A program made the translations under genes and the position numbers. Shown one piece after another: positions 9,527 through 59,091 of a stretch of 64,000 nucleotides of DNA. The stretch's first letter is position 1, and each line of letters starts with the position of its first letter. This DNA is from a virus, in IMG/VR virus record IMGVR_UViG_3300046820_000495, positions 11,203 to 75,202 of that record; one strand, given 5' to 3'. Under the pieces are notes generated by a model. That model was not told the origin of the DNA. It did no database searches and was given only the letters and a program-made list of their open reading frames with translations.

Positions 9527-10054
9527 TTAGCCTTCATATGTAGCAGAGTTAGCACCATGTTCAAACACTTCTACACTTTTAACTCTTACAGTTGGATTAA
9601 TTGGATATCGCATGTCGCCACTTGCAATTAGCTCTGCCATTTTATCAAACGCCATTTTAGCAAACATTTCGCAACCTACACCTGGTACAATGCGTAGATC
9701 ACAAATACCTTGTCGGCGATATGGTTCTACTTGTACACGTTCTGCGTTATCATCATGCTCTGGATTTGAGCTCCAGCCTGACATTAGTTTAAAACGATCT
9801 AACATTGGATCATCTTCGGCAACAACCAAAGTGTGATCAAACATGTGATCTGCCCATGCTTTGAACTCTTTGAGACCACCAAAATCCATACACCAGTTCT
9901 TGTCATCTAGTGTGTCGCATTCAAAAATTAGTTTGATGCCAATTGAATAACCATGTAGCGTGGAACAGTGGCTGTGTGTGGCTCTCCACTGCCTGAAACA
10001 GCAACTCAGACCTCTGTCGTTGCCGTATGTTTTTGTTGAATAAAATTTTGCCAT
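9527..10054 (-). CDS. queD: 6-carboxytetrahydropterin synthase QueD/PTPS family
   Basis: HCSTLHGYS, MDFGGLK, FDHT, GCEMFA, VEVFEH motifs. Confidence 0.88.
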   Translation of the reverse strand: MAKFYSTKTYGNDRGLSCCFRQWRATHSHCSTLHGYSIGIKLIFECDTLDDKNWCMDFGGLKEFKAWADHMFDHTLVVAEDDPMLDRFKLMSGWSSNPEHDDNAERVQVEPYRRQGICDLRIVPGVGCEMFAKMAFDKMAELIASGDMRYPINPTVRVKSVEVFEHGANSATYEG

Positions 10055-10078
10055 TGTTGTTTTTCCTTTGTTAACAAT

Positions 10079-10123
10079 GGCATGCAGAATTTGTATAGCG
10101 GGATGAATGCCGAAGAGACCGCT
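10079..10123 (-). ncRNA. preQ1-I-like riboswitch candidate in the queD leader
   Basis: AGCGG/CCGCU stem, loop ending UCAUC, A-rich tail AUACAAA, possible pseudoknot GGCAU/AUGCC; directly upstream of queD and directly after a TAAATA promoter (10129-10134). Confidence 0.6.
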
Positions 10124-10142
10124 GTTGATATTTATTAAGTGT

Positions 10143-10727
10143 TTAACGTGTCTGTAACTCGTTAATGCCTAATGCTTTGAAAGAACGTTGGACACCAACC
10201 AGTTGGCTCCAACAGTCCCATAAGGCATGATGCGCGGCACCTTGTGGACGTTGCAGTCCGGGTACTAATGCATACAATGTGCGAGCATCACGTGCCTGCC
10301 AATAACTCCAAGCTACACCACGCTTGAGTTCTCTGCTAAAGTGTTCGAGGATGTTTAAGTCAAAGCCTGTGCCGTTGGCCCAAATGGCATCAACACCGCC
10401 ACACCAACGATGGAAGTCTTGTAGTACATTACGTATGTCATGGCGGTCATCTTCTGCAAATGCTTCTCCACGAACTTCTTCGCTTTGCCGGCCCCACCAT
10501 GCTAGTGTGTCATCATCAATGACATGATCGAGGCCTTCAAAGCTTTCAAAACTTACACGACGATAAAACGTATCCATCTTTTCCATTGGATTGTTTGTAT
10601 CTTCTGCCCAGGGATTGAAACGAATAGCACCAATAGTAAGCATTAAACTGTTTGGTTTAGTGCCAAGTGTTTCCAAGTCAACCATGATATGATTGCCTGG
10701 TTTATAAAAGTTCATTTCATTTGCCAT
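10143..10727 (-). CDS. DEDDh 3'-5' exonuclease (Rv2179c/ExoVIII-like)
   Basis: MVDLETLG, WANGTGFD, RDARTL, HHALWD. Confidence 0.88.
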   Translation of the reverse strand: MANEMNFYKPGNHIMVDLETLGTKPNSLMLTIGAIRFNPWAEDTNNPMEKMDTFYRRVSFESFEGLDHVIDDDTLAWWGRQSEEVRGEAFAEDDRHDIRNVLQDFHRWCGGVDAIWANGTGFDLNILEHFSRELKRGVAWSYWQARDARTLYALVPGLQRPQGAAHHALWDCWSQLVGVQRSFKALGINELQTR

Positions 10728-32896: not shown

Positions 32897-33867
32897 TGTC
32901 TAAAATAATTGAAATAAAAAGAAATTACGATGTACTGTATGTATATTGGACACTAACGGATTTTTGCAACTTTAGATGTAACTATTGTCCAAGTAGCTTA
33001 CATGCCGGAGACTACAAGAATGGTAGAAAGCCAGGCTACCCATCAAATGACGAGATACGAACTTTTCTTGATAAGCTAATAAATGTTCACGCCAAGGATA
33101 GAGTATTGCTTGTTTCGATTGGTGGGGGTGAACCTACTCTACATCCAATGTATGAAGAAATAGTAGACACAATTTATCCACATGGTATAGTTGAAACCAT
33201 TACAAATGGTTCGCGAGATTTCAAGTGGTGGCAAGGACTCAATCACCTGCCAGATAAACTTACTATTAGCCTACATGCTGAATGGACTAAAATGGATCGT
33301 GTCAATGAGTTAGGCGAATTCCTACTAGACAATAAAGTACAGGTTGCGTACAATATGATGTGCGACCCAGGAAACTGGAATCGTGTACAAGAACTGTACA
33401 ATCAAATGTCTCCGCGACTACGGCCATATGTTGCTGGTAAAATTATAACAGACCATGATGACGGCCCCGACAATGGCAAACCATGGGACTATACCCCCGA
33501 GCAAATGGAATACATTAAAAGCATCTATGCAACAGGTGAACGGCCTGCAAGAAGAAAAATATACGAAGGTGTGAACATTACGCCTGTGATATACTACGAA
33601 GATGGTTCAACGTCAAAGATGGAAAATCCGTTTGAAGTAGTCAATAACTGGCAGCATAGTTTTACAGGATGGGAATGTAGTGCTGGTAGAAACGGAATAG
33701 CCATTGACTTTGATGGCTATGCTTACGCTGGCAATTGCAGGACACAAAAGCTTGGAAGAATTGATAAGTTTGATTTATTGTCTGAACCAATTATCTGCCC
33801 CAACAAGTGGTGTAAGACAGCCGCAGATATTCAGACCAATAAGCGTTACATAGAACCAGGGTCTTGA
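32896..33867 (+). CDS. Radical SAM protein with C-terminal Cys cluster
   Basis: CNFRCNYC, GGGEP, TNG; C-terminal C...C...C...C. Confidence 0.88.
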   Translation: MSKIIEIKRNYDVLYVYWTLTDFCNFRCNYCPSSLHAGDYKNGRKPGYPSNDEIRTFLDKLINVHAKDRVLLVSIGGGEPTLHPMYEEIVDTIYPHGIVETITNGSRDFKWWQGLNHLPDKLTISLHAEWTKMDRVNELGEFLLDNKVQVAYNMMCDPGNWNRVQELYNQMSPRLRPYVAGKIITDHDDGPDNGKPWDYTPEQMEYIKSIYATGERPARRKIYEGVNITPVIYYEDGSTSKMENPFEVVNNWQHSFTGWECSAGRNGIAIDFDGYAYAGNCRTQKLGRIDKFDLLSEPIICPNKWCKTAADIQTNKRYIEPGS

Positions 33868-34475
33868 AATCCTAGCTCATTGAACGCCCATGCACGTTCT
33901 GTGCAGTTATAACACTCGCCACATCGACCTTCTGTTTGTGCTGTACAACTATGAGTAAGTTCTATTAGAGGCCATATATCAAAGACATTGAACAAGTCTA
34001 ATGTGTGCCTTTTGTCAACTAGTGCAAAAGGAATAGTTGTCCCGGGCAAATTGACCTTGTCCGGTCTTGCTGGATATTCTCCTGGCATTTGAACAGGAGG
34101 GTGTGCCTGACTACCGTAAAAGCAATGTTCAATGTTGTATGTTGCTCTTGCTTCTCTTTCACCACTACGTCCTTGCTGACTATGATGTAGTGTTGGGTCT
34201 CCTACTTGTATAGGAGCTGGCAATTCTATGCCAAGTATTTCGTTAACTTTATCAACGATTGGCTTGACATAGTTCCAAGCACCATCGGGCCTAGCAACTG
34301 TAAACGGAATCAACTCGTGGTCGCTGCCTGACATTTTCTTTTCTAGTGCCAAGATATAAAGTAGTATAGCACTATCTGCTCCACCACTAAGCATTACCCC
34401 GATGCGTTTTTTATCTGTTGGCAATGCTATTTCAACTTGCCGCTTGTTGCCTTCTGGCCCAACTATTACAATCAT
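33846..34475 (-). CDS. QueC-like (7-cyano-7-deazaguanine synthase-like) PP-loop protein
   Basis: LSGGADS; THSC...CGECYNC.ER zinc site. Confidence 0.72.
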   Translation of the reverse strand: MIVIVGPEGNKRQVEIALPTDKKRIGVMLSGGADSAILLYILALEKKMSGSDHELIPFTVARPDGAWNYVKPIVDKVNEILGIELPAPIQVGDPTLHHSQQGRSGEREARATYNIEHCFYGSQAHPPVQMPGEYPARPDKVNLPGTTIPFALVDKRHTLDLFNVFDIWPLIELTHSCTAQTEGRCGECYNCTERAWAFNELGFQDPGSM

Positions 34476-46103: not shown

Positions 46104-46182
46104 TGGTGGGCCGTCTTGGAGTCGAACCAAGCACCAATGGATTATGAGTCCACTGCTCTAACCAAGCATGAGCTAACGGCCC
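46104..46182 (-). tRNA. tRNA with CAU anticodon, most likely tRNA-Ile2 (lysidine)
   Basis: Cloverleaf GGGCCGT...CTCATAA...TTCGACT...ACGGCCCACCA; G1-C72, C4-G69, C5-G68; encoded CCA; promoter TTGACA-17-TACAAT at 46192-46220. Confidence 0.88.
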
Positions 46183-47071: not shown

Positions 47072-48529
47072 TCAGTGAACGGGTATATTATGTAATGTTT
47101 GGAATCTTACAGCGTCTGCCCAGGAGTTGACCAAGGGTTCGCCTTTGATATTTAGGCTGGTGTTCATTAGGATAGGGCAACCTGTACGACGATTCCATTC
47201 TTCCAGGATACTACGGAACACAGGATTATCTTGACGTGTTACTGTTTGAACTCTACTGGAATTGTCCACATGGCACACACCCGGCAACATGTCTGGTAGT
47301 CTGCAACGTGCCACAAACTGCATATAAGGACTAGACTTAACAGGCATATCAAAGTATGTGTCTGCAGATTCTGCTAATACAGCAGGCGCAAATGGCCTAA
47401 ACTGTTCACGCCGCTTAATAGAGTTCATTCTAGGTTTTGCATCCGACCCTCTAGGATCGCAAAGTAAACTTCGGTTGCCAAGTGCCCTTGGACCAAACTC
47501 GGCTCTGCCGTTAGCCAATGCCACAACACGGCCTGCTTCAAGGTCATCCACAATTGCATTAACATCTACGTCCCTTTCAATATTTGTGCCCAAGTAAGGG
47601 CCTTCCCACGTTAAATGGCGTTGGGTGTGTGCGGCCACTGCTCCTAAAGCACTTCCAGCATCGCCTGGATTGGGCATAATCCATACTTCTTTAAATAAAC
47701 CGCTACGAGCAATAACGCTGTTGGCTACACAATTAAGCGCAACGCCTCCCATGAATACCAAGTTGTCACTGACAGTATTAGAGCGCATCACTAATATTGT
47801 TTCTAGTAGGTATTCTTCAATTAATTTCTGTACACTAGCGGCAATGTCAAATTTACTAGCAGTGGGATCCTTAGGTTCCCACCATAAGCAACCACGATGT
47901 AAATTATGACGTAATTTAAAGTCAGGTGGCGCCCATTTAGTAAAGAATGTTTCGCGTAATTCTTCTAAGTATTTGGGTGTGCCGTGTGCGGCCATGCCCA
48001 TTAAAATATATTCTTCTTCGTTGGGCTTTAGGCCCAACCACTGTGTCATTGCTGTGTAAAATAATCCCATGCTGTCTGGGTATTTTTTAGCCCAGCGGCG
48101 TGTCATTTGATCTTTACGAGCTTCCCATATGCTTACACTATCCCATTCGCCAATTGCATCTACTACTAATATTGACGCATCTTCAAATGGACTTGTATAA
48201 TATCCTGCTGCCGCATGGCTTTCATGATGCCCTACATAATCAACAGGCAGGGAATTTAATCCTACTAAACGTAATTGATCACGCGGACTTACAATCCAAG
48301 GACGCTGTCCGGAAAATAGTCTGCGTAAATTCTTTTGAAAAGGCTTTTCAAACCAAACAATTTGTGTAGGTTCACCATATTGTCGCATTTCTTTAACCAT
48401 GTCAGCATCTAACATAGTATCATTCTTTACTCTACTGTAGCGTTCACTGTGTGCCGCCCAAACAATTCGATCCCCATCGATCAGTGCCATGCTGGCATCG
48501 TGGTTCTGCGATGTAATACCTAGTATCAT
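47072..48529 (-). CDS. Carbamoyltransferase (NodU/CmcH/TobZ family)
   Basis: HDAS, ERYSRVKND, HHESHAA, GGVALNCVAN, EFGPRALGNRS, FRPFAP, NTSLN. Confidence 0.94.
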   Translation of the reverse strand: MILGITSQNHDASMALIDGDRIVWAAHSERYSRVKNDTMLDADMVKEMRQYGEPTQIVWFEKPFQKNLRRLFSGQRPWIVSPRDQLRLVGLNSLPVDYVGHHESHAAAGYYTSPFEDASILVVDAIGEWDSVSIWEARKDQMTRRWAKKYPDSMGLFYTAMTQWLGLKPNEEEYILMGMAAHGTPKYLEELRETFFTKWAPPDFKLRHNLHRGCLWWEPKDPTASKFDIAASVQKLIEEYLLETILVMRSNTVSDNLVFMGGVALNCVANSVIARSGLFKEVWIMPNPGDAGSALGAVAAHTQRHLTWEGPYLGTNIERDVDVNAIVDDLEAGRVVALANGRAEFGPRALGNRSLLCDPRGSDAKPRMNSIKRREQFRPFAPAVLAESADTYFDMPVKSSPYMQFVARCRLPDMLPGVCHVDNSSRVQTVTRQDNPVFRSILEEWNRRTGCPILMNTSLNIKGEPLVNSWADAVRFQTLHNIPVH

Positions 48530-48530
48530 A

Positions 48531-48644
48531 TCAATAGATAAATGGATCTCGTTTGCGTAATTCTTCCATACGCTTTTTAATTCTGCGTTTTTCTTTATAA
48601 TTGCGGTACGGGGCTAATAGTAAATCAAGTAATTTCTTAAACAT
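48531..48644 (-). CDS. 37-aa basic peptide directly upstream of the carbamoyltransferase (not in ORF track)
   Basis: MFKKLLDLLLAPYRNYKEKRRIKKRMEELRKRDPFIY; SD AGGAG; TAAGTA upstream. Confidence 0.7.
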   Translation of the reverse strand: MFKKLLDLLLAPYRNYKEKRRIKKRMEELRKRDPFIY

Positions 48645-48664
48645 GGCTGTCTCCTGTCAATTAC

Positions 48665-50734
48665 TTATTGCCACGTACCAGTATCGTTGTATCTGTGAGT
48701 AAAAGAAAAGTCCCAAGTCTTACGTTCTTCTAATAATGCTATTTCTTCTGAATATTCTTCATTGGTAAACTGGCTTTCTCCACCACTGCCAGGCAATGCT
48801 AGCTTACGAGCACGTCGAGCCGCCACAGAGTCAGCACGACTAAACTCACTGTAGTGCCAAGCATCGTCACGTTGAACAAAATCGTAGTAGAAATCCGCTA
48901 TCCAATGTCCATTTGTGTCAATGTCAAACTTGAATACACCTGTAAAGTTACAGCCCATCCTATCACCAAACTCTCTATTACTGAATTCTGGGGTAATAGT
49001 CATGTCTAGTGTATAAGCACCGCGACTGCGCCACATTAGTCGTAGCAATGGCCATATTTCATTTACAAGACTATCAGCAAAATCACTGATTCCAGGCTTG
49101 ATAATGTTGTAGTCAAACACTTCGTACTCTACTTCACGTACCACGCTGTTATCAAAGTTTAATTGGCATATATCATTGACACCACTGCGATTGGTAAAGT
49201 CAATATTTTCCTCTGTTACAATATTATTAAGGAATATATTAAATGTAGTCAGGCGAATTAGTCTATGCACCTTGCTGTTAGCCGAGTCCTTGGTAATCCA
49301 ATTACCTTCAAAATAGCTTTTAGCAATATTATACTTGTCAGTGTTCTGCGCTAAGATAGTGTCAGGCGGAATAGTAAAACCGTGTCCGGCGCTTACGTTG
49401 GTTAAATTGTTGTTGCGGTTACGCCAAATAAAGGTCATTGACTCATAAAAGTCCTGTGGAGTTTCTGTAGGGAAACCAATAATCCAATTTGAAAACGCTT
49501 CTACCCCTACCTCCTTACCGTGACGCAGATTCTGTTCCATTTCCTCTACAGTGACACCCTTGTCCATGTCGGCCAAGACCCGGGTACTACCCGATTCAAT
49601 TCCGTAGCTTAGGCTAATACAGCCTGATTCCGCCAGGTCTTTGTAGTATTCCAAGTCCATACGTCCGTCACAGCGAGCATAACCTGTCCATGCAATTTTC
49701 ATTTCACGGGCAATTACGCCTTTACAGAACGCACGTAGCTCATTTAAGTTCCCATTTACCAAGCTGTCCAAGAACCAAATAACATTGACGCCACGATTAA
49801 AATACAAGTCTGCTACTTCTTCTAAGATGTTACGTGCCATGCGTCCGCGATACTTCCAAAAGTGTGTTTCGCTACAGAATACACATTTAGCTGTACAGCC
49901 GCGGCTTAGTTCTGCGTTAACACCGTTAGGAAATCCATAGTCTAGTGGGTCAAAATAGCTATAATCCGGACTAGGCAGTTGATCTAAGTCTAGTCGCTGA
50001 CCATCTGTTTGACGTAACCAGCGTTGCTTACCATCAAACTGGCCTGTTTCTATTTCTTCTAATGCTTCTAGTAGTAGCTGTTCGCCTTCCCCTGTGATAA
50101 TATAATCATATTCAGATTCAGGTTGCCAGTAACTTTGATGACATTGTGGGCCACCTACCATTACTAATATATGCGGATAGCGGCGCTTTAATTCTTTTAC
50201 CATCCACTTGGTAGGTTCTTGATTACAGTAGTAAAGACTAAAGCCCACCACAGTGGGATTCATTTCCCCAATTTTATCTAAATATTGATTTAAAAAAGGC
50301 TCTACGTATTTGTGCAAATATTCGTAATAATGATTGTCCATCCAACGCCATTCGCGTGAACCATCCCAAGGGTTAAAGTCCAAGCCTGGCCAGTTACCGT
50401 GGTCTTTGTGTGCTTTGGCGTTTAAATCAAATGCGTGTGTAGCGTAACCAGCGTCACGAGTAATAGCGGCTAATCGTGCTATGTTGTAAGGAGGAAAGTT
50501 ATGTGCCCACTCTGGCAGCAACATAAACACAATGCTGGTAGCTCGTGTAGCAGGTGTTATCGCCACTTGCGTTAAATTACTCTGTGGTTTAGCACGAGCA
50601 AAGGGTTGCAGGGCTTCTAGAACCTTACGGTGTTTGGCATCATAGTCTTCTTCTGTTTTAGCTACAGGCTTGGTTTCTTTTAAGGCGTAAATCTTTTGCC
50701 AGCCGTATACACTATTTTCTTTGGGTTTAGTCAT
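48665..50734 (-). CDS. B12-binding radical SAM enzyme
   Basis: VGFS...VGGP...GEGE B12-binding domain; SRGCTAKCVFC; GIESGS; GFPTET. Confidence 0.9.
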   Translation of the reverse strand: MTKPKENSVYGWQKIYALKETKPVAKTEEDYDAKHRKVLEALQPFARAKPQSNLTQVAITPATRATSIVFMLLPEWAHNFPPYNIARLAAITRDAGYATHAFDLNAKAHKDHGNWPGLDFNPWDGSREWRWMDNHYYEYLHKYVEPFLNQYLDKIGEMNPTVVGFSLYYCNQEPTKWMVKELKRRYPHILVMVGGPQCHQSYWQPESEYDYIITGEGEQLLLEALEEIETGQFDGKQRWLRQTDGQRLDLDQLPSPDYSYFDPLDYGFPNGVNAELSRGCTAKCVFCSETHFWKYRGRMARNILEEVADLYFNRGVNVIWFLDSLVNGNLNELRAFCKGVIAREMKIAWTGYARCDGRMDLEYYKDLAESGCISLSYGIESGSTRVLADMDKGVTVEEMEQNLRHGKEVGVEAFSNWIIGFPTETPQDFYESMTFIWRNRNNNLTNVSAGHGFTIPPDTILAQNTDKYNIAKSYFEGNWITKDSANSKVHRLIRLTTFNIFLNNIVTEENIDFTNRSGVNDICQLNFDNSVVREVEYEVFDYNIIKPGISDFADSLVNEIWPLLRLMWRSRGAYTLDMTITPEFSNREFGDRMGCNFTGVFKFDIDTNGHWIADFYYDFVQRDDAWHYSEFSRADSVAARRARKLALPGSGGESQFTNEEYSEEIALLEERKTWDFSFTHRYNDTGTWQ

Positions 50735-51890
50735 CTTGCCATTCTGCTAAAAAATCAGGCCATAATTCATTAAATGAATACTTTTTATCATTTAAGTATT
50801 TTACTTCTGTCGCGTGTGTCCAGTCAGTGAATTCTAGTTTCTTTATTAACCATTCATCACCTGTGCGACCAATGGTTGGGATAAGCTGGCTTCTAATGTT
50901 TTCTAGTGCTGACATATCATAGCCGCTTGAGCTGTATTTGGCTATACATAGATCCAACTCTGCTAAAGCTTTGCGCTTAAAGTTGTCTGGCAATTTGAAT
51001 ACGTTTAAGCTACGAATGTTTTGTATAGCGCACCAGTATACTTCATTGAAATAACCTTCTCCGATAACGAAGTCATAGTACTCGCATAAGTTAAATGCTG
51101 AGTATGTACAGTATAAGGGATGTGCGTTAATAGTTTTGACACCTTGTGCATTAAGATATCGCAAGTTAGACACAAAGGTTGTCCATTCTGCACCGTGACG
51201 TACATATTCAAATCTCTTGTCCACTGTGTCAAAGCTGATGCCCCACTGTGCGTTTGGGTTGGCTATCAACTTGGGTGCTATTGTGTTATTGGGCAGGTCA
51301 ATGCTTAGATTGCTTAGTATGTAATAGTTCTTTGTAGGCAGTAAATCAATTAGCCGATGATTTTGCTTTTGTAGCAAAGGCTCGCCGCCTAGTAGATTAA
51401 TTGTTTCAATGCTGTCAACAGAGTTGATATTTTCAGCTATTAGCGTAAACAAGCTGTCTTCTGCTTCGGCCTTGTTGGCATTGATCTTAATACCTTTGAG
51501 TACACTCCATTTACTGCTGAAATATTCATAGCAGTAATTGCAGGCCAGATTACACAAGTTGCTCCAGCGTAGATCCAGCTTTTGAAGTTCAAATGTTTCT
51601 TTTGTTGCTGATTCAAACTCTTCAAATTTTTGAACACTATTGGTATCAACTCGTTCACTTCTGGCCCCCATTGCTTCTAGCTTTTGGCATTGGGCACATT
51701 GTGGATGCCAGCGTTCTTCTACAATGGCCTGACGTATGCCTTGTGCTGTAGGACCTTGTAGTATTTCTTGTATGCTTTGCTTGTTGATATCGCCTATGTC
51801 CATTTCAGCACTACAGCAGGTTTTAACCCCGCCGTCTGCGCCTAAGAAAATAGTATTAAATGGGTAAGCGCAAAAGGTTTCTTTATTCAT
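50727..51890 (-). CDS. Radical SAM protein with N-terminal Twitch-like domain
   Basis: FCAYPF...GGVKTCC...CAQC precedes CNLACNYC; GGEP. Confidence 0.88.
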   Translation of the reverse strand: MNKETFCAYPFNTIFLGADGGVKTCCSAEMDIGDINKQSIQEILQGPTAQGIRQAIVEERWHPQCAQCQKLEAMGARSERVDTNSVQKFEEFESATKETFELQKLDLRWSNLCNLACNYCYEYFSSKWSVLKGIKINANKAEAEDSLFTLIAENINSVDSIETINLLGGEPLLQKQNHRLIDLLPTKNYYILSNLSIDLPNNTIAPKLIANPNAQWGISFDTVDKRFEYVRHGAEWTTFVSNLRYLNAQGVKTINAHPLYCTYSAFNLCEYYDFVIGEGYFNEVYWCAIQNIRSLNVFKLPDNFKRKALAELDLCIAKYSSSGYDMSALENIRSQLIPTIGRTGDEWLIKKLEFTDWTHATEVKYLNDKKYSFNELWPDFLAEWQDD

Positions 51891-53655
51891 TGTTTAATAA
51901 TTTATTCATTAATGCATCAGCAAGTTGCTCGTGGTATTCCACGTGTGCATGATAAAATCCATGAACTTGTGAATCGTTTCGCCAGTCAATGAGTTTGCTC
52001 AAGCACATGTCATGATCAACAATGCTTCTTAACTTGTGAGTATTGGTTGCCATACACATAAAACGTGGATTCAGCTTTTTATCCTGGACAAAACTGGCAT
52101 AGTCATCCATGGTGCAATGTAGATACTGTACTAATAATCTGCCGCCAAGTTCCTGACTCAGCAGGTCCAGATAGCGCAAAGAAGCATAGTAGTTAAAAAA
52201 TAAAAAGTATTCGTCCCCAATATGTTCAACAAATTCATTGTGGAAACGCTCGCTAGGCCAGTATTTAGGATGACCAATGATTGGGGTAGCAGGCCATGGC
52301 CATCCAAATCGTTCTTTTTTGTCAAAGTACATCCAGCGTTCCATGCTAGTTGCGCCAACTAGTATTAGATCATATTCAGTTAGTACACCTGAGGACAAAT
52401 CTTGTTCAATCATGTAAATCATTCCTTGCATACCGCTGCCAGGTATGCCACGATTTAAAATAGGAACATCAAGTCGTTTGGCAAGTTGTCCGGCCCAACT
52501 GAGTTTGGACTGAGTATCTAATACTGTTTTATCGCCCAAGAATGGATAATCAGTGTAAAAGTCATTGGCGCCAGTGGCTGAATATTTTCGTTTTATCTTA
52601 TCAACTTCTCCACGTGACGCGGGCGTTGGCCAAAACAAATGATCAGCCAATTCACTGCCTGCTGTGTGACTGCATCCGTACGCTACAACTCTATTAAATT
52701 TAATAGTTTGACCGTTCCGAGTGATAGACTTTAACGGAAGCATTTCCCAGTCTGAATGAAGTATTTCAATAACCTCAGGTCGCAATTGATACAATGAATT
52801 TTTAAAAGTCTGATTGAAGAATTCTTTCTTCCAATCACCTATTACATTGAGTCCTTTAAGAAACTCACCAAGGACTTCGGCACTTTCAGGCGTTATATGG
52901 AAACGATGTACTGTGACCATAAAGCCGTTTTCAGCTACTGCTCTGTCTAATTCATTTTTTAATTGGGCAGGTGTTAATCTTTCAGCCAGATTAAATCCAC
53001 CAAACTGACCAACTGCCCATTTATCCTTGGACTCTACCCAGAGTTCTCTACTTTGTGCATATATCCAATACAAGCTTGCTTCACTGCTGTTTAGTACAGG
53101 ACGAGTCAATATGTCATAGTTCATTGAACTCAAGTGTTCTAATAAACTCCTAACAAAGGTGTTGCGCCAAATAAAGGGTGTAATTGGAAACTGTTCTCTA
53201 ACCGAGTCAACATCAATTCCCAGTATTCTTGCAGATCCAATTTGATCTGTACTTGGCGCATGATCTTTGTCAAATACCACTACCTTTAAGTTGTTGTCAA
53301 TAAAGAAGTCGCCAAGAGACAAATTTCTAATTAGAAAGTTCTTGCTATCTAGTACTACGCTGTAGTCAGCTTGGCTTTCACTTGCGGCCCATAACTTTAA
53401 TATTTGTTGTCTATGCCATCCATCAACTGCAACTAATTTAGGTCCTGTTTTAACATTCAGTGTCCAGCCTGGCATATTTGATTTAATATGATCGTTGATC
53501 CAATCAATTACACGCTGATAAATGTCTTCATCTTCGACCACTATGGTCCAATTCTTTTCACCTTGCCAGAATTTTTCCAAGCTGTGTGCATGATAATATA
53601 GCGTGGCTAGGTCACCACTGTAAGTTACTGTAATTAATTCTGAGGTATATCGCAT
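51883..53655 (-). CDS. Fusion of a glycosyltransferase-like (DUF6492-like) N-domain and an SGNH/GDSL-like C-domain
   Basis: GWHRQQILKL...VLDSKN; YGCSHTAG...SWAGQLA...NRGIPGSG...H. Confidence 0.6.
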   Translation of the reverse strand: MRYTSELITVTYSGDLATLYYHAHSLEKFWQGEKNWTIVVEDEDIYQRVIDWINDHIKSNMPGWTLNVKTGPKLVAVDGWHRQQILKLWAASESQADYSVVLDSKNFLIRNLSLGDFFIDNNLKVVVFDKDHAPSTDQIGSARILGIDVDSVREQFPITPFIWRNTFVRSLLEHLSSMNYDILTRPVLNSSEASLYWIYAQSRELWVESKDKWAVGQFGGFNLAERLTPAQLKNELDRAVAENGFMVTVHRFHITPESAEVLGEFLKGLNVIGDWKKEFFNQTFKNSLYQLRPEVIEILHSDWEMLPLKSITRNGQTIKFNRVVAYGCSHTAGSELADHLFWPTPASRGEVDKIKRKYSATGANDFYTDYPFLGDKTVLDTQSKLSWAGQLAKRLDVPILNRGIPGSGMQGMIYMIEQDLSSGVLTEYDLILVGATSMERWMYFDKKERFGWPWPATPIIGHPKYWPSERFHNEFVEHIGDEYFLFFNYYASLRYLDLLSQELGGRLLVQYLHCTMDDYASFVQDKKLNPRFMCMATNTHKLRSIVDHDMCLSKLIDWRNDSQVHGFYHAHVEYHEQLADALMNKLLNNE

Positions 53656-54917
53656 GAAGAGTCCACGGGCTGATTCTTTGACGATCTGTCATTGATTTCG
53701 TGTGTAAAGATTCTATCTATACTGCTGTACTGTCCACATGTGTCTGCACAATAACTTAAACGTCCATTTTCAACTTGATCTATTTTCCATGTATCTGCAA
53801 ACACACGATCTAAATGTTGTGCGCTTAGAATTTCTGTTAGCGAATATGTATCCAAGCTAAAGTGTTCCCAACCGTAATCATTCATATGCTTGTGAAGCTG
53901 TAAGCTACGAGTGTCTGTGTAGACACCATTCAAATGTGTGCCAATGTAACAGCAAGGCATCACGCGGCCAAAGTTGTCTACAAAGATTTCTTTACCGCCT
54001 GTCCAAGTACGACTTTTACATTTAATTTCACAACTGTTATACTTGGTGTTGTCTTCTGCAAAGATTCTATGTGTGTATACTTCTGCTACTTGTTGTTGGA
54101 ACGCTTTGGATATTTGCTTTGTTTCTTTTAACTTACGATAGTCATCTACGTTAAAAGGATAAAATGTTACTTCAGCTTCGCCTTTGGGTTCTGCTAGGTT
54201 ACGGTTCTTTGCTTGCGTTGGCGCTTCGATAATGTAATCTAACTTGCCATCTTTGTCTAGTACAGGCATTTTAGTCAGATACTCGCCGTTGTCAACGCCT
54301 AGTGCTTTCTTGGGCACAAACTCAGCAAACTTCATTTGTTCTGCTAGTGCTTGTGCCGCTTCAATTTGATGCTCGTTATGGCGGAAGATTAAGTAGTCCC
54401 AGTTAGCTGAGCCACCTGCGTTAATGAATGCTTTGACGTTTTCCATAAGCACACTCCAGTTAACATTACGGCGATACAAATGATTGGTATCTTCTAAGCC
54501 GTCGATGCTAAATGTAATTTGCCAGTAACTGGGATTATGGTCGCGGGGGAATTGGGCAAACAGCGCACCCATTTTGGCCCACCAATCGGGCTTTCGCATA
54601 CCACCATTGGTGTTCATGCGTACTGCTGTGGTCTTGCTTACTGAGGCAATGTAATCGCAAATTTCGTAAGTGTCCTTTGCTGTACCAGGGTCTCCGTGTA
54701 CGCCACAAAATAAGATCAGCTTGCAACGCTGTATAACTTCTGGTGGGAAATACTGCTTGAACTTGTCCAAGGTAATTTGACCAATTTCTAAGTCTGGTCT
54801 AGCATGTGGACTGTTGTTGTGAAAGCGTACACACATGGGGCAGGCGGCATTGCAACCATTGGTAAGCTCAATGTGCATTTGCTCTATTTCTTCTAAGGTC
54901 CAGAACGCTTTATCCAT
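53634..54917 (-). CDS. Radical SAM protein with C-terminal Twitch/SPASM-like domain
   Basis: CNAACPMC, HGDP, TNGG, SIDG; C...GRVMPCC...C...C. Confidence 0.88.
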   Translation of the reverse strand: MDKAFWTLEEIEQMHIELTNGCNAACPMCVRFHNNSPHARPDLEIGQITLDKFKQYFPPEVIQRCKLILFCGVHGDPGTAKDTYEICDYIASVSKTTAVRMNTNGGMRKPDWWAKMGALFAQFPRDHNPSYWQITFSIDGLEDTNHLYRRNVNWSVLMENVKAFINAGGSANWDYLIFRHNEHQIEAAQALAEQMKFAEFVPKKALGVDNGEYLTKMPVLDKDGKLDYIIEAPTQAKNRNLAEPKGEAEVTFYPFNVDDYRKLKETKQISKAFQQQVAEVYTHRIFAEDNTKYNSCEIKCKSRTWTGGKEIFVDNFGRVMPCCYIGTHLNGVYTDTRSLQLHKHMNDYGWEHFSLDTYSLTEILSAQHLDRVFADTWKIDQVENGRLSYCADTCGQYSSIDRIFTHEINDRSSKNQPVDSSCDIPQN

Positions 54918-56142
54918 TATGTGCCTTTACTACTTGTCCATAAGCTTCAAATGTTGCAAAGAAGTCTTGTTCTCTGTAAACATCGTGTGTCTTAATTGTA
55001 CTTAAGAATTTGGCCCATTCTTCTTCTGAACAAGGAGTACCATTTTCAATAAAGCCAATGATGCCGGGCAATTGCCACCAGGCATGTTCATAGTTCTTGG
55101 GAATATTGTGCAGTCTATCAAGCACAGCTTCTTTGATGTCAGTGGGCAAACTGCCCATGTTAAAGTGTGCAGGGCGATGTACTAGGTTTAAGTATAAACC
55201 AAAGTCTGTAAAGTTATCATAGTAAGCATCTAGTGTTTCAGGCAAGTTGTAGATGTTAATACTGCTTAATGTAATACACCAGCTTAGGCTTAGGTTGCCG
55301 TGCTGTTTAGCAAATGCCGATGCCTTCTTCATGTTGTCTACTGCTTCTGTCCATACAGCTGGATACCGCATGTATTCAAATTGTTCGCCTGTGCCATCAA
55401 TACTAAAGCTAAGGTTAACATGCTTGAAGTTCTTCCAAACTTCTGTTTCTTCTGGCCATGTTGTACCGTTGGTGTTGTAGTGTAACTCAATGTCTTTGGC
55501 ATAACCGTTGTCTACACAAAGCTTTAGCACTTCCCACATTTTCTTACTAAGGAATGGCTCGCCACCATAAAAGTCAAACTGTCTAATGGTGCTTAGGTTA
55601 TTAGCCAGGTCATCCCAAAACGGACTGTCTTCATCATATGTTTGATGATACTTCTTCATGTTAATAGAGTAATCTTTATAGCTTACACGATTAGCATGAT
55701 TCAAGTCATAATCCTCTTTCATCCATAAACTACTAATAGTCGGATGGCATGTACGGCATTTGATGTTGCAGGTGTTACCCAAGTTAAGTTCAAACTTGGC
55801 AAGACCTGTAAAAGGCTCTGCACCTTCGTACTCTATAGCATGAAAGTACTTTTCATTGTCACGCAGGCGTTTGCTCTTACGTCCGCCATCTTCTTCTTGC
55901 CAGCACTGATTACACGCACGATCGCGTACACCTGCGGCCAAATTGGCTTTGATACCCTGGGCAATAGGATTGTTAAAGTTTTCTTCAATTGTTTTACTAC
56001 CTAAGAACCAATCTTGTTTGCCACCCATGTAGTTGTATGACTCATCAATCATACAGCACATTTTACTAGAGCCGTCATTGTTACCGCTCATGCCATGTAG
56101 TGCATTCACGCACCAGCTACGTTCATTCTGTTGGTTCATCAT
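54910..56142 (-). CDS. Radical SAM protein with N-terminal Twitch-like domain
   Basis: WC...KMCC...CNQC; CNIKCRTC; GGEP; TNG; SIDG. Confidence 0.88.
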   Translation of the reverse strand: MMNQQNERSWCVNALHGMSGNNDGSSKMCCMIDESYNYMGGKQDWFLGSKTIEENFNNPIAQGIKANLAAGVRDRACNQCWQEEDGGRKSKRLRDNEKYFHAIEYEGAEPFTGLAKFELNLGNTCNIKCRTCHPTISSLWMKEDYDLNHANRVSYKDYSINMKKYHQTYDEDSPFWDDLANNLSTIRQFDFYGGEPFLSKKMWEVLKLCVDNGYAKDIELHYNTNGTTWPEETEVWKNFKHVNLSFSIDGTGEQFEYMRYPAVWTEAVDNMKKASAFAKQHGNLSLSWCITLSSINIYNLPETLDAYYDNFTDFGLYLNLVHRPAHFNMGSLPTDIKEAVLDRLHNIPKNYEHAWWQLPGIIGFIENGTPCSEEEWAKFLSTIKTHDVYREQDFFATFEAYGQVVKAHNG

Positions 56143-57493
56143 AGGTTAGATATATCTGCTTACATAGTTTGTAAAATTCCTCGTACTCGGGAAATAGTTC
56201 AATTAGGTTAGTACCTAGTCTGTTGTCGTTTTCGTTAAAGAAGCTGAAAAAGTCTCTGCGGCCTGCACGAATATGCTCGGGCGTTAATTCATGTTCTTTC
56301 ATGTAGCCAGTCACACGCTTGAACTTTTCATACTCAACAGCCGTAAAGAATTCAGGGTGACTCTTGATAAATTCCAAGTTGCCATCCATGTAAGGAATAA
56401 AGTCTGGTGTTAAAATCTTAATCATCCAGTGCGGTGGTTCCTTCAAGTAAGGCGTATCAAAAGATACTGCATCCTTGCCGAACTCAGTGCGCCATTCAAT
56501 TACTTTTTCCAGTAGCGCACGGAATGTTGTAACGCATAGCACATTGAATGTACACATTAGGTTAATTGTAGCACCAGTTTTCATAACTGCTTTCATGTTG
56601 CGTTCCCAGTGGGCACAATCCATACCTGTACGCATATACTCTGCTTGTGCGCCCCAACCTTCAATTGACGTAAAGAAGCTGAACTTACGAATCTTCTTTT
56701 GTGCCAACAAGCTTTCTACACGCTCGATTAACGAGTCTACCTTGGCAAAACTTACGCCCAAGTTACTGTTTAGTGTAATTTCCAACTGTGGTGCTGGTTC
56801 TGTTTCTAATAGATCAAAGAACTGCATGGCACCCTTGTTCATCAAGGGCTCGCCACCTGTGATGCGAAGTGTATGTAAATCGTGCTTGAGACTTGGCCAC
56901 CATTTCCAAAACGCTTCAATGTACGGGTTCTCATCTTTAGGACCATAGTAAGTGCCTGTTTTCAAGAACTCAATACCATACTGATTGTATGTTAAGTCGT
57001 GGTTACCAAACTTCTTAATTTCTTCCATCCATGCTGTGCTGGCTTGTGGACTGCAATAGCCACAGCGATAGTTACAGTTATTACCAAAGCTGACTTCTAA
57101 GTAACGTGGGTTAATAGGTGCGTCCCAAGGCAACTCTGCCAGCTTTTCAATGTGTGGTGCGGCAAAGTCTGAACTACTGTGAATCATACGATCGCTAATA
57201 TGCTCGCCCGGCAAGTCTTCAATGTTCCAGCAGTAGTAACATTCATCTGGACGGCCGCCTTCTAACATGGTCTTGCGCTGTTCCTTTTTCCACTTGGTGT
57301 TGTGTAATGCGCTGGGATCAGCGGCAATTTCATCTAGAGGAATATGATGAGGACGTGGATGATAGCAACTGTGATTATCACCTGTGTGCAGATACAAGGT
57401 TTGGTGCAACCATTTCATTGCACAAAAACCTGGCCCTACTTTGTTTAATCTGTCTCTTACACTTTTAATGTGTACTACTCTATGATCTGACAT
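56123..57493 (-). CDS. Radical SAM protein with N-terminal Twitch-like domain (SCYH variant)
   Basis: FCAMKW...HSCYHP...ECYYCW; CNYRCGYC; TGGEP. Confidence 0.88.
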   Translation of the reverse strand: MSDHRVVHIKSVRDRLNKVGPGFCAMKWLHQTLYLHTGDNHSCYHPRPHHIPLDEIAADPSALHNTKWKKEQRKTMLEGGRPDECYYCWNIEDLPGEHISDRMIHSSSDFAAPHIEKLAELPWDAPINPRYLEVSFGNNCNYRCGYCSPQASTAWMEEIKKFGNHDLTYNQYGIEFLKTGTYYGPKDENPYIEAFWKWWPSLKHDLHTLRITGGEPLMNKGAMQFFDLLETEPAPQLEITLNSNLGVSFAKVDSLIERVESLLAQKKIRKFSFFTSIEGWGAQAEYMRTGMDCAHWERNMKAVMKTGATINLMCTFNVLCVTTFRALLEKVIEWRTEFGKDAVSFDTPYLKEPPHWMIKILTPDFIPYMDGNLEFIKSHPEFFTAVEYEKFKRVTGYMKEHELTPEHIRAGRRDFFSFFNENDNRLGTNLIELFPEYEEFYKLCKQIYLTYDEPTE

Positions 57494-57501
57494 TGTTATC
57501 C

Positions 57502-59091
57502 TTATCTTAGTTTATATATCTTACTTGCTCTGTCGCTGAGGTTAACTAACTCCGTCAACTCCGGAAATGTTTCTTTAAAGTCTGTCCCGCGGCGTCGATC
57601 ATGTTCTGTATAGAAAGCATGAAAGTTTGCTCTAGCAGTCAACGCTTCTTCTGGCGTGTATGGATTACTTGCCCAATCCAATAATCTACGCACTTTATCT
57701 ACTTCATAGTCCTTGAAACCTCTAAAAGGATTTTCCTTAGTTTCGAGGTTAGCTTCCATGAATTCAATGCTTTCACGCAGTACTTCTAAGTCACCAGTTG
57801 GAAGTATTTTTAAACTTAACCAATCTGGATCCATCAACATGGGCACATCAAACCAAACAAGCTGTCGTGTAGTGTTAAACTCTTGGCGTAGGGCCAAGAT
57901 GTTTTTAACATACTCCAGCCATCCTGGTATACTTAGTGCATTGAAAGTAACAATGAAAGTTAAACTGTGCTTGGTGCCTTTACGCAAGTACTCTCTAACG
58001 TTCTTGTACATAACATCAAAGTCTAGTCCATTGCGAATATACTCTGCTTGCTTGCCCCATGAGTCCAGGCTACAGTAAAGCATAAAGTGATCAATGGCGT
58101 TGCGTTCTTCTAATACTGTCAAGGACTTGATAAACTTCTTCCATTGTCCTTTAGGAGGGCAACAATTACTTGTAATGCTTAGATGTAGTTCATCACCTTT
58201 GGGATGTTCTGCTACATAATCAAATACCTTAAACGTATTCTTATCCATAAGCGGTTCGCCGCCAGTCATGCGGAATGTTTGTAAGCCTGTGTATACTGTA
58301 GGGAACCATTCCCAAAACGCTGTTAGATAAGGATTGTCTGGTCCGTTATCTGGCATGCCTTGTTGTACCATCCAACGGATATCATTGTGTGTACGCTTGT
58401 CAGCTAAGACATATGGCCCGTACTTTTCTGATTCCTTCATCCACTCTGTACTTAGATGAGGACTGCAATATGCACACTTAAAATTACAAGCTTGGTTAAA
58501 GTTTACTTCTACATAGCGTGGGGTGGCATTACCTGTGTGCAAGTCTACTGCAAGGTCTTCTAGCATACCAGGACGATATACATCCTTGCTACGATAAGCA
58601 CGATCGCTTAACTGTTCGCCAGAGTCTTCAATGTCCCAACAGAAGTTGCACTCTTCGGGCCGCTCACCTTTAAGCATCTTTAGTCGCTGTTCCTTCTTGT
58701 GCTTGGTGTTGTGTATAGCACTAGAGTCTGCTGTAATTTCTTCTAAGGGTATGTGGTGTGCAGGAGGATGATAGCACGAATGTGTCTTGCCTGTAGGGAT
58801 ATGGATACTAACATTATACCATTTGGCCAAGCACATACTTGGACTAATTTCATTTACAATTTCAAACACCTTGCGGGCTTCGTGAGCGTAAATGCTTTTA
58901 ATTTCTGTTTTCTTACCTGTAGCTAAATTGCCGTCGCCGCGAACATTATGAACCAATTTGAGTTTGTCTTTGTCTGACTGACTCATAAAGCTGTACAGTT
59001 CGGGTTCTTTAATGGCTAGAATTTTTGCACGAATATTGTCTTCGCTAAAGGGCTTTGGTAAGTTTTTTGTAATTTTGTCAAAGATATTCAT
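57502..59091 (-). CDS. Radical SAM protein with N-terminal Twitch-like domain (SCYH variant), paralog of the previous gene
   Basis: MCLAKW...HSCYHP...ECNFCW; CNFKCAYC; TGGEP; extended -10 TGnTATAAT 8 nt before ATG. Confidence 0.88.
   Translation of the reverse strand: MNIFDKITKNLPKPFSEDNIRAKILAIKEPELYSFMSQSDKDKLKLVHNVRGDGNLATGKKTEIKSIYAHEARKVFEIVNEISPSMCLAKWYNVSIHIPTGKTHSCYHPPAHHIPLEEITADSSAIHNTKHKKEQRLKMLKGERPEECNFCWDIEDSGEQLSDRAYRSKDVYRPGMLEDLAVDLHTGNATPRYVEVNFNQACNFKCAYCSPHLSTEWMKESEKYGPYVLADKRTHNDIRWMVQQGMPDNGPDNPYLTAFWEWFPTVYTGLQTFRMTGGEPLMDKNTFKVFDYVAEHPKGDELHLSITSNCCPPKGQWKKFIKSLTVLEERNAIDHFMLYCSLDSWGKQAEYIRNGLDFDVMYKNVREYLRKGTKHSLTFIVTFNALSIPGWLEYVKNILALRQEFNTTRQLVWFDVPMLMDPDWLSLKILPTGDLEVLRESIEFMEANLETKENPFRGFKDYEVDKVRRLLDWASNPYTPEEALTARANFHAFYTEHDRRRGTDFKETFPELTELVNLSDRASKIYKLR

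Follow-up and report, generated by a model that had tools for sequence, protein, structure and literature searches.

A conserved pseudoknot in the queD leaders of uncultured phages, a candidate for a new riboswitch class

Results

Organization of the queD leader

The window, i.e., the whole 64,000-nt stretch of viral DNA analysed here, comes from a 75-kb IMG/VR record with a CheckV completeness of 23%. On its minus strand, on which all elements of the leader lie, a gap of 88 nt extends from the stop codon (10143–10145) of a gene for an Rv2179c-like exonuclease (194 aa, 10143–10727) to the start of queD (9527–10054), the putatively regulated gene. The first-pass annotation had placed a preQ1-I-like riboswitch in this gap, made up of a TAAATA box, an AGCGG/CCGCU stem (P1) closed by a 17-nt loop, a loop segment GGCAU complementary to a downstream AUGCC, a Shine-Dalgarno (SD) sequence and the queD AUG, and every one of these elements is present as it described. 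The downstream gene was also named correctly: the 175-aa product belongs to the PTPS/QueD family (Pfam PF01242, 1.4e-15), and an association with queD was found in every operon examined.

The 5′ strand of P1, AGCGG (10123–10119), pairs with the 3′ strand CCGCU (10101–10097), and compensatory changes link the two strands. The intervening loop of 17 nt, UCUCUUCGGCAUUCAUC (10118–10102), falls into three parts. L1, UCUCUUC (10118–10112), has an invariant C and U as its second and third nucleotides according to column counts in two alignments of relatives (A1 and A3, see below). The 5′ strand of the second helix, P2, follows as GGCAU-U-CA (10111–10104), in which a variable helix strand is succeeded by the U of a U·C mismatch and then by a conserved CA. 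The two-nucleotide junction UC (10103–10102) ends in an invariant C, a candidate for the base that would pair with a ligand. After P1 comes the tail AUACAAAUUCUGC (10096–10084), which begins with L3, AUACAAAUUC (10 nt, 10096–10087; consensus WUAHANAYUC), with three invariant adenines and an invariant final UC. The 3′ strand of P2, UG-C-AUGCC (10086–10079), contains the AUGCC (10083–10079) that is complementary to the loop GGCAU (10111–10107).

The last four bases of this strand (10079–10082) are shared with a second structure. In MFE folds computed without pseudoknots, the leader forms P1 and a second hairpin of 10 bp that buries the start codon, with the 5′ arm UGCCAUUGUU (10082–10073) overlapping the P2 3′ strand by 4 nt and the 3′ arm AACAAUGGCA (10058–10049) including the queD start codon (10052–10054). 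The SD sequence AAGGA (10068–10064), 9 nt before the AUG, lies in the loop of this sequestering hairpin. The leader fold has a z score of −2.6, being better than 198 of 200 shuffles. The range originally assigned to the element, 10079–10134, thus contains the aptamer but stops short of the full feature, the expression platform (10049–10082) reaching beyond it.

The TAAATA sequence (10134–10129), just upstream of the aptamer, may be the −10 box of a phage promoter; a sigma-70 scan made no call there. Among 130 relatives, a TAnnnT box is found 3–12 nt before P1 in 62, most commonly as TATAAT (21), and is accompanied by a −35-like motif in 31 of the 62. In many relatives a promoter of the form TTGAC-17-TATAAT ends 7–8 nt before P1, so that the aptamer would begin the transcript. 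A covariance model built from the relatives (first alignment) scores the aptamer site at 66 bits (E 1e-22) and detects no second copy in the 75-kb record, including before other pathway genes. A reading of the site as a terminator was rejected, as no U-tract follows P1 and no terminator was called at the site.

Conservation and covariation of the pseudoknot

More than 230 phage contigs of IMG/VR have the motif ahead of a gene of the QueD family. Homologous leaders were retrieved through the QueD protein, blind to the RNA, which yielded 374 IMG/VR relatives; of the 80 best loci, 79 include upstream DNA, and the motif is present in every one of these. A second protein retrieval, starting from a QueD subfamily 35% identical to the window QueD, found it in 74 of 75 loci with upstream DNA. 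A search of IMG/VR with a degenerate pattern added at least 120 further stretches, of which at least 119 have four or five of the five P1 pairs.

Three alignments were used. Alignment A1 was made with MAFFT from 50 protein-retrieved aptamers (46 distinct rows) and is free of RNA-pattern bias; sets derived by pattern are biased toward the conserved loop letters that the pattern demands. MAFFT applied to 133 aptamers mis-registered P1, and model-based alignments were used in its stead: one of 103 all-distinct sequences made with a covariance model, and a joint alignment of 98 distinct sequences. In A1, P1 is 99.6% paired and P2 84.7%; across the alignments, the larger of which hold 98–103 distinct homologues, the values are 99% for P1 and 76–85% for P2.

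The covariation analysis of related leaders that the first-pass annotation had called for bears out its H-type pseudoknot, which is real and conserved, both helices covarying in the 98–103 distinct homologues. In A1 the covariation score is 0.371, as compared with 0.137 ± 0.013 in shuffles, none of 500 of which reaches the observed value, and control pairings with the 3′ partner slid by 1–3 columns score at most 0.077. Changes on both sides of a pair occur at 10–11 of 12–14 pairs in the 98–103 distinct homologues; in the 103 model-aligned sequences they occur at 10 of 12 pairs, matched by no shuffle. Compensatory changes are seen at three to four of the five P1 pairs. For the variable part of P2, whose partner in the window is 10079–10083, all seven alignment pairs show both-sided changes, and 47 different strand combinations occur. 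The anchored length of P2 averages 3.9 bp, against 1.65 ± 0.15 bp when tails are permuted among the sequences.

L1 ranges from 4 to 10 nt and has C and U invariant at positions 2–3. Of 101 aligned sequences, 100 have the junction C, and the base before it is U (71), C (19) or A (10). The invariant columns of L3 (A.A.A.UC) appear in the protein-retrieved A1 and also in a further alignment, A3. The downstream QueD proteins are 31–98% identical to the window QueD (median 43%). That L1 CU, the junction C and L3 A.A.A.UC stay invariant while QueD falls to 31% identity implies that the core of the RNA is much better conserved than the protein. We regard it as practically certain that the leader element is a real, strongly conserved, phage-restricted cis-regulatory pseudoknot.

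Extension of P2 by a strictly Watson-Crick pair

Four low-scoring members of the second set have UCGNC in the loop in place of UCANC and UCCGC in the tail in place of UCUGC. These paired variants suggested that the loop CA pairs with the tail UG and that P2 continues across the conserved U·C mismatch. The outer pair of this extension was tested in all of IMG/VR with four patterns that are identical except for the form of the pair. The A:U and the G:C patterns each returned at least 120 stretches, of which at least 119 are genuine. The A·C pattern returned none, and the G·U pattern five, none genuine (P1 is unpaired, or no queD-like leader lies downstream); these five spurious matches calibrate the rate at which such patterns match by chance. 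In the joint alignment of 98 distinct sequences the extension pair is A:U in 51, G:C in 42 and unpaired in none, and the neighbouring pair is C:G in 93 of 93.

P2 therefore consists of a variable helix of 3–7 bp followed by U·C, C:G, and A:U or G:C. In the window it comprises GGCAU-U-CA against UG-C-AUGCC, so the GGCAU/AUGCC pairing first noticed there stands, although it is only part of the helix. With the extension, the true P2–P1 junction shrinks to the UC at 10103–10102, and L3 becomes the 10 nt at 10096–10087. A pair that tolerates only Watson-Crick forms beside a junction with invariant unpaired bases is what would be expected if a ligand pocket had its floor or ceiling here.

Gene association and distribution

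Among the matches listed, all 118 operons with the A:U form have QueD/PTPS as their first or second gene. The first downstream gene belongs to a single QueD/PTPS cluster in 115 of these and is a distant PTPS by Pfam in a 116th; in the remaining two, a cupin gene or a gene for a 243-aa protein of no assigned function comes first and queD second. For the G:C form, again among the matches listed, a QueD-like gene lies directly downstream, about 30 nt past the aptamer, in 118 of 119 operons.

A few loci depart from the simple arrangement. One phage carries a second copy (L013:1345–1396, 49.8 bits) before a gene for a 312-aa radical SAM protein with a UUG start and no clear SD. In another phage a degenerate second copy (L089:6–50, 24.8 bits) without UCUGC precedes a gene for a 309-aa methyltransferase-like protein. 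At L178:6750–7172 the motif stands before tandem QueD-family genes, the first encoding a canonical QueD of 141 aa (CAHLHGHNY) and the second a paralogue of 171 aa.

Applied to 185,579 bacterial and archaeal species genomes, the pattern matched 87 stretches, six of them genuine. All six lie on MAG contigs of 4–32 kb, which are probably mis-binned phage DNA. Nearly all of the other matches were rejected as a single conserved coding stretch, which we take to be glycine dehydrogenase, that recurs in dozens of bacterial phyla with two or three of the five P1 pairs; pattern matches must therefore be filtered by P1 pairing. GenBank phages contain nothing similar at the DNA level, as judged by megablast and blastn with the locus and two leaders. 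Three cultured phages, HD01, Iggy and Moby, were checked with the covariance model; it finds no motif in their queD regions, where the gene is leaderless and sits within a tight operon.

Expression platform

According to fold predictions made without pseudoknot energies, the 3′ side of P2 is paired with the initiation region in 114 of 133 distinct A:U-form leaders, namely with the AUG in 72 and with the SD in 42, and in 112 of the 133 the start codon anchors an uninterrupted helix of 6 bp or more. Such sequestering pairing is predicted in 55 of 88 G:C-form leaders and is missing from the MFE structure in the other 33, as it is in 19 of the A:U-form leaders. The complementarity extends over three strands. 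Genes that start with AUGACUU go with a P2 composed of AAGUCAU (3′ strand) and GACUU (5′ strand), and those that start with (G)AUGGCA with a P2 composed of AUGUCAU (3′) and AUGGCAU (5′). This three-way covariation indicates that the P2 5′ strand mimics the start region of the gene and competes with it for the same partner. The first-pass annotation had remarked that the pseudoknot partner is not the SD, and this is so: the P2 3′ strand is instead complementary to the AUG/SD region.

The G:C form uses a shared strand ACACUCC or CCCCUC that pairs with GGAGU or GAGG, and in some members a CUCC within the aptamer, formed by L3 and the extension, pairs with the SD. One aptamer is thus combined with at least three platforms (anti-AUG, anti-SD and CUCC-in-aptamer), all of which overlap P2 or L3. 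The mean cost of keeping the P2 3′ strand out of other pairing is 4.7 ± 1.9 kcal/mol (8.9 kcal/mol in the window), and the number of unpaired bases among the seven of the SD and AUG rises from 2.1 to 3.9 on average and from 4 to 7 in the window when the strand is freed. Since the P2 3′ strand is at the same time the anti-AUG or anti-SD arm, formation of the knot would open the ribosome-binding region and turn translation on. If the element is a riboswitch, this ON logic is quite probable, the direction of control being read from the predicted structures.

QueD and the 7-deazaguanine pathway

The window QueD shares 52% identity with its counterpart in Pseudomonas phage Iggy and 58% with the one in Acinetobacter phage HD01; each of these two genes belongs to a queE-queC-queD-folE-dpdA cluster. 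At residues ~102–122 the window protein has an insertion of ~21 residues, GWSSNPEHDDNAERVQVEPYR, that is absent from six other aligned QueD-family proteins, including those of Iggy and HD01. Its subfamily has C-x3-HGY where canonical QueD has C-x3-HGH.

Other pathway genes were sought in five larger jumbo relatives (L044, L064, L019, L003 and L074; 147–364 kb, two of them 91–100% complete). FolE was found in all five, and a QueE-like radical SAM protein in all four that were searched for it; the window's own 23%-complete record gave no QueE-like match. QueC was represented in the five by weak QueC-like matches only. A Pfam search for TGT/DpdA found none in the five, with positive controls, and the DpdA of Iggy matched nothing in four larger relatives or in the window's own record. 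In the window, a minus-strand gene at 33846–34475 encodes a 209-aa QueC-like PP-loop protein in which Pfam QueC matches the C-terminal 54 residues (3e-7) and the N-terminus shows a weak Asn_synthase match; it may be a divergent QueC.

Comparison with known RNA families

The first-pass annotation had suggested the Rfam PreQ1 models as a check on its assignment, and this check went against it. The preQ1-I model RF00522 (gathering threshold 39 bits) gives no match at the site at E values up to 10, either in a 301-nt scan or in the whole 75-kb record, and none at the site in five short-loop variants at the same limit. The models for preQ1-II (RF01054) and preQ1-III (RF02680) do not match at the site either, and a cmscan of 9950–10250 against all 4227 families of Rfam 15 at E values up to 10 returned two unrelated chance matches only. 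A 15-bit RF00522 match elsewhere in L162 was dismissed, as it has the appearance of ordinary sequence and not of a preQ1 motif. A full-text search of the literature found no prior description of the motif.

In preQ1-I riboswitches, the aptamer is an H-type pseudoknot with UC (type I) or AC (types II and III) just ahead of the 3′ strand of P1; this C recognises the ligand, P1 is lined by an A-rich L3, and P2 takes in bases of the SD (PMC11625349). The family is further characterised by an L3 that occupies the minor groove of P1 and touches the ligand with its last adenine, by a P2 3′ strand that reaches into the SD or continues to a terminator, and by selective binding of preQ1 and preQ0. With the examples from B. 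subtilis (queC), T. tengcongensis, C. antarcticum and E. coli the phage motif shares the H-type fold with a 5-bp P1 and a loop–tail P2, the invariant C that abuts the 5′ end of the P1 3′ strand and follows a U or A (in the phages also a C), spaced adenines in the tail after P1 with an L3 that starts WUA.A.A, and a place before genes for 7-deazaguanine or queuosine synthesis with translational control, which for the phage motif is predicted. The differences are substantial. P2 has 6–10 positions in the phage motif, including the U·C mismatch and the CA:UG (or CG:CG) module, and 3–4 bp in preQ1-I; L1 is 4–10 nt with an invariant CU, as opposed to UU or UC; the P2–P1 segment is 2 nt rather than 4–6; and L3 ends in an invariant UC rather than in A. 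The P2 3′ strand is an anti-AUG or anti-SD in the phage motif, which implies ON control, whereas in preQ1-I it is the SD itself, giving OFF control. Unlike preQ1-I, moreover, the motif is found only in uncultured phages. The description as preQ1-I-like therefore fits the architecture (5-bp P1, invariant C, A-containing tail), while membership of the family is not supported.

The preQ1-II and preQ1-III riboswitches are likewise pseudoknotted aptamers at queuosine-pathway genes, but they are larger (~60–100 nt), have extra helices, and bury the SD in or near the knot (OFF). Translational ON control is known from the adenine riboswitch of add, and PRPP and ZTP riboswitches are ON switches of biosynthetic genes. 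As in these, ligand-stabilised pairing within the phage aptamer would compete with a helix that hides the ribosome-binding site or start codon, and a pathway would be activated by a precursor or signal rather than repressed by its end product; their folds (three-way junctions, larger pseudoknots) are unrelated, however, and none of them is known to be restricted to phages.

Discussion

We propose that a compact H-type pseudoknot in the queD leader serves as the aptamer of a translational switch that acts in cis. This switch is most likely a riboswitch that responds to a small molecule and represents a hitherto undescribed class, a reading to which we assign a probability of roughly 0.6. Two helices that covary, an extension pair that is strictly Watson-Crick, mutually exclusive pairing of the P2 3′ strand and an exclusive association with queD are observed across the homologues. 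A conserved 5′ UTR aptamer, a variable expression platform, exclusive pairing and a consistent gene association, which belong to the general definition of a riboswitch alongside selective ligand binding that alters gene expression, are all found in this family. That the element responds to a small molecule, a binding event predicted from sequence, has in our estimate a better than even chance of being correct. Counted against it is the predicted ON control of a biosynthetic gene, which is unlike that of every known preQ1 riboswitch.

In the absence of ligand, P1 alone would form and the variable 3′ strand of P2 would pair with the start-codon region, or with the SD in other clades, leaving queD untranslated. 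A small molecule would stabilise the knot by pairing with the invariant junction C. The full knot, i.e., P1 and P2 with its CA:UG extension stacked around the N-C junction, would then withdraw the sequestering strand, expose the AUG and SD, and turn QueD synthesis on. Pairing with the junction C would call for a ligand with a guanine-like face, such as a purine, a 7-deazapurine or a pterin (e.g., dihydroneopterin triphosphate).

QueD catalyses the committing step of 7-deazaguanine synthesis, from dihydroneopterin triphosphate. We reason that an ON switch at this step fits the sensing of a precursor or physiological signal better than feedback by an end product; the ON logic thus makes feedback sensing of preQ1 or preQ0 less likely, and either of these as the specific ligand seems improbable to us. 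A possible but tentative elaboration is that this is the first riboswitch class found only in phages and that it responds to a compound sensed by no known riboswitch, a guanine-faced precursor such as 7,8-dihydroneopterin triphosphate or another pterin close to it, which the junction C would recognise so as to turn QueD on. If so, the phage would draw on the GTP/folate precursors of its host only at times when these are available.

The same conserved loops might instead serve a translational switch that involves no metabolite, a reading that we consider rather unlikely. Either the loops would be bound by a protein, be it QueD or some other factor of phage or host, or the control would be kinetic, the knot forming first during transcription and permitting a burst of translation before the more stable closed hairpin takes over. 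Such a switch agrees with the pseudoknot-free folds, in which the sequestering hairpin is thermodynamically favoured, and with the order of transcription, P2 being made ahead of the AUG region. Protein-bound leader pseudoknots are, moreover, established in phages: that of T4 gene 32 nucleates protein binding in translational autoregulation (repression), and it has in common with the queD leader that a pseudoknot in a phage 5′ leader controls translation. It is, however, without a conserved small junction pocket and without the three-strand design of mimic and anti-RBS. The queD element is also very small and lies 25–45 nt upstream of the RBS, and its invariant unpaired junction bases beside a Watson-Crick-only pair are typical of ligand pockets and not of protein sites. 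Its downstream partners include QueD proteins with identities as low as 31% as well as one radical SAM gene that is not homologous to queD, and this speaks against autoregulation through one particular protein surface.

The resemblance to preQ1-I raises a different question, namely whether the motif is a divergent member of that family that binds preQ1 or preQ0 and reports the end product of the pathway. The 5-bp P1, the 2-nt junction ending in an invariant C, the WUA.A.A start of the tail and the location before a 7-deazaguanine pathway gene all speak for membership, and yet we judge it quite unlikely: RF00522 finds nothing at E values up to 10 here or in the five short-loop variants, and P2 (6–10 as against 3–4 bp), the U·C and CA:UG module, the CU of L1 and the UC that ends L3 all set the motif apart. 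In the preQ1 riboswitches described so far the ligand-bound state turns the gene off (PMC11625349), contrary to the ON wiring predicted here, and activation of a committing enzyme by its end product would make little regulatory sense. Still other kinds of structured RNA, i.e., an element of mRNA stability or processing, a small self-cleaving ribozyme or a terminator of the upstream exonuclease gene, are very improbable. The intergenic gap does begin directly after the stop codon at 10143–10145, and small pseudoknotted ribozymes are established in phages; no Rfam ribozyme or other family matches at E values up to 10, however, and only a role in controlling translation initiation accounts for the three-way complementarity among the two P2 strands and the start region. 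We retain the small-molecule riboswitch as the preferred reading. The leader element is a real riboswitch candidate that has probably gone unreported. It resembles preQ1-I in how it works and should not be filed in that family; we regard it as a candidate for a new class related to preQ1-I in design.

To our knowledge, the riboswitches reported in phages so far (e.g., glutamine) belong to classes first described in bacteria, so a class found only in phages would be new. A relative of preQ1-I with reversed logic and a different pocket would amount to a natural experiment in rewiring a minimal pseudoknot, and its ligand would tell which cue these phages, which are abundant in fresh water and the sea, follow at the onset of 7-deazaguanine synthesis. 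With a length of ~45 nt, hundreds of natural variants and a predicted built-in ON platform, the element could also serve as a compact genetic part.

Other features of the window

The sole Rfam family above threshold in the window is a tRNA gene on the minus strand (46107–46182; RF00005, 58.9 bits). A run of large genes on the same strand (47072–59091) resembles a large auxiliary biosynthetic cluster. By PHROGs it includes a Nol-like carbamoyltransferase (47072–48529, 1e-96) and three members of radical-SAM families (53634–54917, 56123–57493 and 57502–59091), and a 689-aa ORF within the run weakly resembles a B12-binding radical SAM protein of Streptomyces phage SF3.
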